A DNA stretch of 64,000 bases, from NCBI GenBank assembly GCA_947367055.1, contig CANBCI010000001.1:77632-141631 (forward strand). Reading direction: 5' to 3'. Within the stretch, counting starts at the first letter, position 1; the number at the start of each line of letters is the position of its first letter. Shown one piece after another: positions 31,383 through 31,595 of the stretch. The translations under genes and the position numbers were made by a program. A model generated the notes under the pieces. It was not told the DNA's origin. It ran no database searches and worked only from the letters and a program-made list of their open reading frames with translations. The stretch comes from an uncultured Alphaproteobacteria bacterium. GTDB lineage: Bacteria; Pseudomonadota; Alphaproteobacteria; Rs-D84.

Positions 31383-31595
31383 GTCACAGGGAATTTCTGT
31401 GACGGGGCGTCGAAACCCCTTATAGAGGGTCCGGATTATTCCGGACATTTATGGCACAACGAAATAATTGCTTATTTTCATGGTTGTGCCGCCTTCCAAC
31501 CACACAGGTTGGAGGATGGCTGAATATATTGAATAGGCCTGCAATTCTCTATAATTGTTTCGAACCTCCAACCACTTGATTTTTCAGTGGTTTTT
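31383..31595 (+). ncRNA. C4/CI-like antisense leader RNA module, copy 2
   Basis: Hairpin GTCACAG/CTGTGAC, hairpin GGGG-CGTCGAAA-CCCC, site TTATAGAG; cloverleaf 31507-31573 closed by GGTTGGAGG/CCTCCAACC exposing CTCTATAA and GTTTCGA; terminal CCAC/GTGG hairpin plus T-run. Confidence 0.7.

Follow-up and report, generated by a model that had tools for sequence, protein, structure and literature searches.

Sequence evidence for a probable self-masking, attenuator-like leader around a predicted relative of the C4 and sRNA-Xcc1 antisense RNAs in an uncultured alphaproteobacterium

Competing partners for the 5' arm of a small antisense RNA

We analyzed a 64,000-nucleotide (nt) stretch of DNA, referred to here as the window, from an uncultured Alphaproteobacteria bacterium of the Rs-D84 lineage (GenBank assembly GCA_947367055.1, contig CANBCI010000001.1, positions 77,632 to 141,631 of the forward strand). 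It holds three copies of a repeated leader, each carrying a predicted small antisense RNA between a promoter-like sequence and a protein-coding "cargo" gene. Taken as a whole, these leaders probably have a self-masking, attenuator-like design with two states, in which the 5' arm of the closing stem of the small RNA pairs either with an upstream segment, here called the anti-arm, or with the 3' arm of the same stem, the last bases of which are shared with a terminator directly ahead of the cargo gene.

The arrangement is seen in copy 2, all parts of which lie on the plus strand. The anti-arm (segment 1, the proposed anti-antiterminator; CTTCCAACC, 31493..31501) is followed, after a loop of 5 bases (31502-31506), by the 5' arm (segment 2; GGTTGGAGG, 31507..31515), which starts with GGT and has two possible partners, CTTCCAACC upstream and CCTCCAACC downstream. 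Between the arms are hairpin A (31516..31541, with the conserved loop GAATATATTGAATA), hairpin B (31542..31557, CAATT-CTCTAT-AATTG, the loop of which is the specificity element b') and the single-stranded junction a' (GTTTCGAA, 31557..31564). The 3' arm (segment 3; CCTCCAACC, 31565..31573) has its final 4 bases in common with a terminator-like hairpin and T-run (segments 3 and 4, 31570..31595, AACCACT..AGTGGTT then TTTTT). At the start of the unit a -10-like box (TAAAAAT, 31370..31376), missed by a consensus promoter scan, lies immediately 5' of hairpin H1 (31383..31403, GTCACAG-GGAATTT-CTGTGAC), the first hairpin of an a1b1 motif. Hairpin H2 (31404..31419, GGGG-CGTCGAAA-CCCC) holds in its loop a1 (GTCGAAAC, 31409-31416), which complements a', and is followed by b1 (TTATAGAG, 31420..31427), which complements b'. 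The cargo gene (31635..32246) encodes 203 amino acids with a signal-peptide-like N-terminus and 16 cysteines, and matched no Pfam family. A short peptide in copy 2, with its ATG right behind a GGAGG, was dropped from consideration, as there is no ATG at that place in the other copies.

The preliminary description of this DNA had called the small RNA a cloverleaf. This did not hold: the fold is a three-way junction, made of the closing stem and two hairpins, and not a tRNA-like four-way fold. ARAGORN called no tRNA there, its only calls in the window being a tRNA-Phe and a tRNA-Lys elsewhere.

The predicted anti-stem recurs and co-varies across the genome

The genome to which the window belongs comprises 959,553 bases in 5 contigs (C1 to C5 below; contig C4 is not to be confused with the C4 RNA). 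Searching it by nhmmer, with a profile built from the three window copies, gave 46 copies at E<0.01; the later covariance model R1 gave 50, a density of about one copy per 19 kb. The anti-stem was scored as contiguous pairs, with G-U allowed, between the 24 bases upstream and the 5' arm of each copy. At least 7 pairs with its own 5' arm were found in 36 of the 46 copies, and at least 6 in 41. Helices of at least 7 pairs occurred in 35% of 1952 non-cognate combinations of upstream segment and arm, and in 9% of shuffled upstream segments, and the observed mean helix was matched by none of 2000 permutations.

Model R1 matched 37 of the 41 genomes searched, our own counted (23/24 in the same genus, and 4/4, 6/6, 1/2, 2/3 and 0/1 in other families of the order). 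Among these relatives, the 29 best loci on the sense strand were taken, leaving out five weak, opposite-strand or truncated matches. An anti-stem of at least 7 pairs was present in 20 of the 29, including loci from four other families of the order, and again none of 2000 permutations reached the observed value. The presence of the anti-stem beyond the three window copies had been set beforehand as a test, and these counts bear it out. In the window itself, the words that had been quoted as able to sequester the 5' arm were present in all three copies, and in each the minimum free energy (MFE) fold of the local stretch consisted of the anti-stem hairpin and an extended terminator.

To this was added an alignment of all 46 copies made in MAFFT (alignment A3), in which rows with 10-base arms are one column off register at the anti-stem. 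In A3, 79.3% of anti-stem cells were paired, with both sides changed at 7 of 9 pairs; for the closing stem 91.5% of cells were paired, with both sides changed at 6 of 10, and hairpins A and B were paired in 81.6% and 79.5% of cells, respectively. The expectation that these pairings co-vary with the stem sequence was confirmed for both helices, across the 46 paralogues and the relatives. At least five arm classes were distinguished (GGTTGGAGG, GGTCAGGAGG, GGCTGGAGG, GGCAGGAGG, GGTAGGAGG and others), each retaining both partners. Anti-stem cells included 57 G-U against 13 A-C combinations, and therefore suggest selection on a sense-strand RNA helix. The proportion of Watson-Crick cells was 65% in the anti-stem compared with 90% in the closing stem. 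By the alignment, the anti-stem is thus a sense-strand RNA helix and systematically the less stable of the two, which is what one would look for in a competitor that can be displaced.

The same data bear on two other explanations of the arms. It is hardly credible that they are DNA-level repeats, products of recombination or of a mobile element, rather than RNA helices, even though the 3' arm repeats the anti-arm almost letter for letter in direct orientation, the family has many copies, some in tandem, and occurs beside phage-type helix-turn-helix (HTH) genes, and sRNA-Xcc1 was originally found in an integron cassette. The preference for G-T over A-C mismatches (57 to 13) is sensible only for RNA of the sense strand; co-variation is seen in H1, in the closing stem and in both hairpins of the small RNA; and promoter and terminator stand in fixed register within the units. 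We also think it quite improbable that the anti-arm is a processing or trans-pairing site, whether a nuclease entry hairpin or a third target of the 5' arm of the mature small RNA. It does co-vary with the 5' arm as a target would, and A/U-rich single-stranded linkers such as GAUGAAAA lie beside it, but the loops of 3-8 nt that separate anti-arm from 5' arm suit a local hairpin and not a trans site, and pairing in trans would require the 5' arm to leave a closing stem of 9-11 pairs beforehand.

The terminator shares bases with the 3' arm

By our own hairpin and T-run rule, a terminator lies right behind the 3' arm in 41 of the 46 copies, with a stability of -7.5 kcal/mol or better in 36 of those. 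Its stem takes at least 3 bases of the 3' arm in 31 of the 41, 4 or 5 being commonest, and the extended terminator pairs at A3 columns 139-141 are retained in 30-42 of the 46 rows. In the window the overlap amounts to 4, 3 and 5 bases in copies 2, 1 and 3, as the preliminary description had proposed. A consensus terminator scan called copies 1 and 3, shared 3'-arm bases included, and made no call for copy 2, the stem of which is bulged. When the 3' arm was blocked during folding, the hairpin lost a median of 8.1 kcal/mol, typically falling from about -10 to about -2 (in copy 2, from -8.9 to -1.0 kcal/mol). Because the terminator stem needs 3'-arm bases, the full closing stem and the terminator compete.

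Upstream, a TATAAT-like hexamer (at most one mismatch) precedes H1 in 29 of 34 copies, exactly matching in 21, and its spacing is near-fixed, mostly 31-33 nt ahead of a1. Sense promoters in the window copies were not called by the consensus promoter scan, so that the promoter assignment relies on this fixed-distance -10 count. The cargo start is only 33-61 nt past the 3' arm, which leaves no possibility of a second promoter between them.

Each small RNA is matched by its own upstream a1b1 motif

We compared the junction and loop elements of each small RNA with the sequences on either side of it. For a' against the upstream sequence, cognate pairing averaged -7.69 kcal/mol and non-cognate pairing -5.44 kcal/mol (0/300 permutations), and b' also showed a cognate upstream signal (0/300 permutations, 40 copies with a called loop). 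With strict cut-offs, a1 followed by b1 at a distance of 0-8 nt was found in 24 of the 46 copies. Downstream, a' gave a weak cognate signal (9/300 permutations) and b' gave none (172/300). The hairpins around these sites were paired in 83.8% (H1, with many pair types) and 87.5% (H2) of cells in 30 rows, 4 misaligned rows of 34 having been left out; their shape matches the c4-a1b1 alignment contained in the supplement of Weinberg et al. 2010 (part of PMC2864571).

All 46 combinations of a' and b' are distinct, and b' is the most variable segment, with an entropy of 1.77 bits compared with 0.81 bits for the hairpin-A loop. This suggests pressure against cross-talk in trans. A genome-wide search for trans targets with 7+6-nt words was too noisy to use, and a hidden Markov model of the a1b1 region returned one target-only site.

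The target-only leader lies in the window at 43765-43815 (minus strand), ahead of a gene at 43334-43759 (minus strand), and has a -10-like box and an H1-like hairpin with no small RNA. Its two sites, GGGTGTCGAAACCC (43793-43780) and AAGTTATAGGAG (43776-43765, overlapping the ribosome-binding site), match a' and b' of a copy on contig C4 (C4:11955). By its sequence it looks like a true trans target of the a2/b2 kind known for the C4 RNA. The 141-amino-acid product of the gene behind it belongs to no Pfam family.

Two folds compete in silico

For each of the 34 copies in which both a terminator and an a1 had been called, the full leader was folded, H1 through T-run. In 31 of these the MFE fold was one nested closed rod, and a1 paired in cis with a' in 30. 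In this rod the GGGG of H2 pairs with CCUC of the 3' arm, a1 with a', and b1 with b', opening hairpin B; inside it are the spacer hairpins, the anti-stem hairpin and hairpin A, and the full terminator follows after it. The closed fold was better than the open fold, in which the closing stem forms, in 31 of 32 copies, its median advantage being 8.6 kcal/mol when the transcript has just passed the 3' arm and 12.4 kcal/mol once the terminator is complete. When a1b1 was removed and the terminator not yet reached, the open fold was favored in 38 of 46 copies (median 2.9 kcal/mol). By this margin, the two folds are near enough in energy to be rivals when a1b1 is unavailable. On this folding model the anti-arm appears to be one of four cis complements (GGGG, a1, b1 and anti-arm) that jointly unfold the small RNA.

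The contribution of the anti-arm was assessed by scrambling it in the 32 copies that have both an anti-arm and a terminator. In local context, the arm-using terminator pairs dropped in probability from 0.68 to 0.40, and the closing stem gained, going from 0.26 to 0.64; the terminator went down by more than 0.2 in 18 copies and up by more than 0.2 in 1. The proposal that a two-state fold is linked to termination was thus supported at sequence level by the shared bases, the energies and the scrambling, with the amendment that the switch would be larger than the anti-arm segment to which attention had been drawn.

Several results weigh against an anti-arm switch. With the full leader folded, scrambling the anti-arm barely moved the terminator (0.78 to 0.73, n=27), and the closing-stem probability was about 0 at equilibrium with or without it, so that in the full-leader model a1b1 alone would suffice. 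A shortened closing stem of 5-6 inner pairs could also coexist with the full terminator, softening the exclusivity. The 10 copies of 46 that have no 7-pair anti-stem count on the same side, as do tandem-array copies such as C3_145122, C3_145346 and C4_27269, which have an anti-arm and no convincing terminator; because of these, the anti-arm is not strictly tied to termination. Finally, the paralogues are related by duplication and their co-variation cells are not independent events, yet there are at least five distinct arm classes. It follows from the full-leader scrambling that the anti-arm matters only when a1b1 is occupied or removed, or through the kinetics of folding.

These results also give room to the main rival explanation, which we regard as possible but rather doubtful. 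Here the anti-arm would be a constitutive folding helper that occupies the G-rich 5' arm, so that the closing stem spares the terminator; after release, RNase P would trim the leader and the junction would form, and the cargo would be expressed by leaky read-through or by P1-like trans action on the ribosome-binding site. No input would be needed, since the terminator is favored at equilibrium both in full (0.78) and in local (0.68) context, and 31 of 32 copies have the closed fold as their ground state. The weak downstream signal of a' (9/300 permutations) agrees with it as well, and the target-only site on a ribosome-binding site in the window would speak for trans repression of the C4 kind in this genome. 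Such a helper would, however, leave unexplained the perfect cis complementarity of a1 and b1, with b' lacking a cognate site downstream (172/300), and also why cargo genes with no other promoter would depend on an unregulated leak.

Proposed mechanism

The self-masking, attenuator-like design that we favor can be set out in the order of the transcript. From its own promoter, the RNA would run through the a1b1 two-hairpin motif, a spacer, the anti-arm, the 5' arm, hairpin A, hairpin B with b', then a' and the 3' arm, and end with the 3' half of the terminator and the U-run (segment 4), the ribosome-binding site of the cargo lying beyond. In the closed fold, which would be the default state, the anti-arm would grip the 5' arm, a1 would grip a', b1 would grip b', and the GGGG of H2 would grip the CCUC of the 3' arm. 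This would leave the tail of that arm free to complete the terminator, so that transcription stops with the small RNA masked. When the leader is open, the two arms would close the three-way junction and the terminator would lose most of its stem, allowing read-through into the cargo. By analogy with P1 C4, the open fold would also be a substrate of RNase P, cut at its GG(U/C) start; a GG(T/C) start is present in most 5' arms of the 46 copies.

Actual toggling of the leader RNA, its processing by RNase P and the event that opens it are matters that we infer. As to the opener, we propose only tentatively that a1/b1 of a nascent leader is bound by its mature cognate small RNA, made by the same or a different copy, or else that the 5' leader is removed. 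Of these two, the cognate small RNA is favored because all a'/b' pairs are distinct, b' is the most variable segment and a target-only trans site exists. A further step, which we think unlikely, is that the leaders are self-addressed, small-RNA-keyed bistable switches, in which the closed fold would be the OFF state and mature cognate RNA on a1/b1 would block the cis lock, letting the junction form and so yielding more small RNA as well as read-through.

Copies 1 and 3 of the window

The two remaining window copies are both on the minus strand. Copy 1 occupies 4611..4814, with its terminator found by the scan, shared 3'-arm bases included. Its -10 box TATAAT (4814-4809) is followed by H1 (4801-4781), H2 with a1 (4780-4767) and b1 (4764-4759). 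The anti-arm CCCCGGC (4708-4702) has its partner GCTGGGG inside the 5' arm (4695-4687), and the 3' arm (4640-4632) runs into the terminator (4634-4611). The cargo gene (3942..4589) encodes a 215-amino-acid secreted-type protein with 20 cysteines and no Pfam family.

Copy 3 occupies 37092..37310, and both its terminator and its spacer hairpin were found by the scan. Its upstream parts are a -10 box CATAAT (37310-37305), H1 (37298-37278), H2 with a1 (37277-37262), b1 (37258-37253) and a spacer hairpin with U-run (37239-37216). The anti-arm TCCCAGCC (37193-37186) pairs with GGTTGGGA (37182-37175) of the 5' arm (37182-37173), and the 3' arm (37123-37114) overlaps the terminator (37117-37092). The cargo gene (36293..37063) encodes a 256-amino-acid secreted-type protein, again of no Pfam family. 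The spacer hairpin of copy 3 is an example of what is seen in "long" leaders of this genome, namely a GC hairpin and T-run between b1 and the anti-arm, within a GCGTCG...CGACGA pairing. A GC hairpin followed by a T-run is also found just 5' of C4 in many canonical C4 loci of other Pseudomonadota (L075-L104).

Cargo genes and tandem arrays

A called open reading frame lies at most 220 bases downstream in 33 of the 46 copies. Most cargos have a signal-peptide-like start, and many contain 12-29 cysteines. When 9 cargos from outside the window were compared with Pfam, 8 had at least one match at E<=0.01. Those above the family cut-offs were HTH_3, outer-membrane beta-barrel (2 proteins), trypsin and glycosyltransferase 8; two small proteins had sub-threshold matches of HTH type only (HTH_19, MqsA antitoxin), and proteins of 170 and 399 amino acids had no Pfam match at cut-off level.

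Copies in tandem arrays were frequently without cargo. Arrays of 3 to 7 small-RNA units adjoin HTH_3 (XRE-type) genes at C3:144097-145712, C4:26938-27736, C2:53400-54209 and C5:20904-21265. Some of their units have no terminator or a1b1 of their own, and are reminiscent of the clustered sRNA-Xcc1 homologues in Xylella islands.

Family identity

At gathering score, Rfam had no match near the window copies. Sub-threshold matches to DUF3800-VI (20.5 bits) and to a hammerhead-like family (15.3 bits) were treated as chance. The Rfam C4 family (RF01695, gathering score 45 bits) had no matches at E<=1 in the genome and none in the three window copies at E<=10. The c4-a1b1 family (RF03163) reached at best 18.5 bits against a threshold of 46.7, at the a1b1 of copy C3_66343, and matched copy 2 weakly at 31370-31423 (15.1 bits); these weak matches coincide with H1 and H2 at the start of the unit. 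The best-scoring Rfam family was sRNA-Xcc1 (RF02221), with 12 sub-threshold matches in the genome, the best of 42 bits against 53. The junction of copy 3 aligns to it at 37106-37182 with the same layout (31.9 bits, sub-threshold). Judging from these alignments, the unit is most plausibly a remote relative of C4 and sRNA-Xcc1 with a promoter of its own.

Further sub-threshold sRNA-Xcc1 matches, of 26-39.5 bits, fall outside the 46 copies. They are at C2:33729-33821, C4:16793-16884, C3:119673-119762, C3:156592-156684, C1:283863-283941, C3:183740-183827 and C1:219784-219878. They may represent a second, more divergent subfamily of junction RNAs.

The anti-arm in related RNA families

We applied the anti-arm test to canonical C4 loci drawn from a further 150 genomes of the phylum, leaving out one locus with a partial match (L093). 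In 29 such loci plus P1, the mean best helix was 6.27 compared with 6.40 when shuffled (650/1000 permutations). For 29 sRNA-Xcc1 loci, one at a contig end (L131) having been left out, the corresponding values were 5.52 and 5.54 (797/1000 permutations). With the signal present in the relatives of our genome and in neither of these two sets, the anti-arm combined with the shared-base terminator characterizes this alphaproteobacterial branch. Our literature search found no paper describing an anti-arm or a shared-base terminator in this RNA family.

In P1 (L001), CGTTACGCCC at 228-237, upstream of c4, can form 10 pairs with GGGCGTGATG at 248-257, in the 5' strand of C4. This candidate anti-arm is not used in the P1 MFE fold, and the canonical C4 set shows no such signal.

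Other features of the window

Two features of the window lie apart from the leaders. The last 21 bases of the tRNA-Lys gene (18753-18828) and the next 38 are repeated exactly 191 bases downstream (18808-18866 = 18999-19057; region 18753-19108), and an open reading frame of 390 amino acids follows at 19172-20344. From their sequence the repeats look like attachment sites of an integrated element. On the minus strand, a 659-amino-acid open reading frame (43846-45825) contains YbeY endoribonuclease, LNT_N and CN_hydrolase (apolipoprotein N-acyltransferase) domains. Either the fusion is an unusual one, or calling the frame from a GTG start has joined two genes.

Significance

If the favored reading is right, a phage immunity RNA design, that of P1 C4 and sRNA-Xcc1, would have been rebuilt here as a chromosomal leader in which the closing stem of the small RNA serves as antiterminator and four upstream complements serve as a built-in lock. 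These leaders are amplified ahead of outer-membrane, secreted cysteine-rich and regulatory genes in uncultured Alphaproteobacteria with small genomes. Should the switch work, self-specific RNA leaders would gate much of the surface proteome. On the bistable version, which we doubt, dozens of independent heritable ON/OFF states of surface and secreted proteins could exist in a 0.96-Mb genome with the DNA unchanged, as a form of phase variation made of RNA alone that goes back to the immunity circuit of a phage. A working switch would also give the a1/b1 sites a concrete function; in P1, what they do is not known to have been established. The annotation of P1 goes no further than calling them "putative". 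Covariance model R1 is now available for an RNA family that falls below all Rfam gathering scores.

Comparison with known systems

The nearest known arrangement is the immI locus of P1 and P7 (a1 b1 - c4 - a2 b2 - icd/ant), in which, as here, the small RNA lies inside the leader and its ends close a multi-helix junction; C4 is also treated in PMC12197685, in part. In P1 C4, a', which is the single-stranded junction ahead of the 3' strand, and b', which is the second hairpin's loop, complement upstream a1 and b1 in the same order as in our units. The 5' end at GG(U/C) resembles the RNase P site of P1, and a GGW motif is given in part of PMC5320573. In P1, however, a' and b' also match a2 and b2 at the icd ribosome-binding site, whereas at the cargo ribosome-binding site here no cognate b2 was seen and a2 is weak. 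The closing stem has 9-11 pairs here compared with about 17 in P1 C4; a terminator that abuts the 3' arm and shares its bases is found here, unlike P1 C4; and the cargo genes encode chromosomal surface and secreted proteins, compared with an antirepressor in P1. The MFE fold of the P1 leader retains the C4 closing stem of about 17 pairs, whereas the leaders here are predicted to fold closed.

sRNA-Xcc1, known from a Xanthomonas integron cassette and from Xylella islands and treated in part in PMC2996969, shares with our units the three-way junction, a GAAUA...AAUAAG motif in hairpin A and a U-rich junction before a C-rich 3' arm. When 29 sRNA-Xcc1 loci were inspected by eye, the complements of loop and junction sat on the ribosome-binding site of the next gene, with no terminator between. 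Tandem clusters of sRNA-Xcc1 in Xylella, as presented in part of PMC12189769, parallel the tandem arrays here. The multi-copy C4-like RNAs (Group 1) of A. baumannii are, according to the relevant part of PMC5320573, processed from longer transcripts at GGW, and resemble ours in having many chromosomal paralogues with variable specificity loops. The Group 1 RNAs match the Rfam C4 motif, as that part of PMC5320573 states, whereas the RNAs here do not; a built-in terminator or an anti-arm is not mentioned in the same portion of that paper. The density of about 50 copies in 0.96 Mb is also unlike Group 1.

Among regulatory leaders, the closest likeness is to trp-type attenuators (1:2, 2:3, 3:4), with four segments, overlapping pairings and an intrinsic terminator just before the gene. 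Three features of attenuators are present in our leaders: a terminator between promoter and gene, an antiterminator that shares bases with the terminator, and a competing anti-antiterminator. Unlike trp-type attenuators, no leader peptide, tRNA-binding or ligand-binding element is evident here, the role of antiterminator falls to the closing stem of an entire antisense small RNA, and a second layer of cis complements (a1, b1 and GGGG) competes as well.

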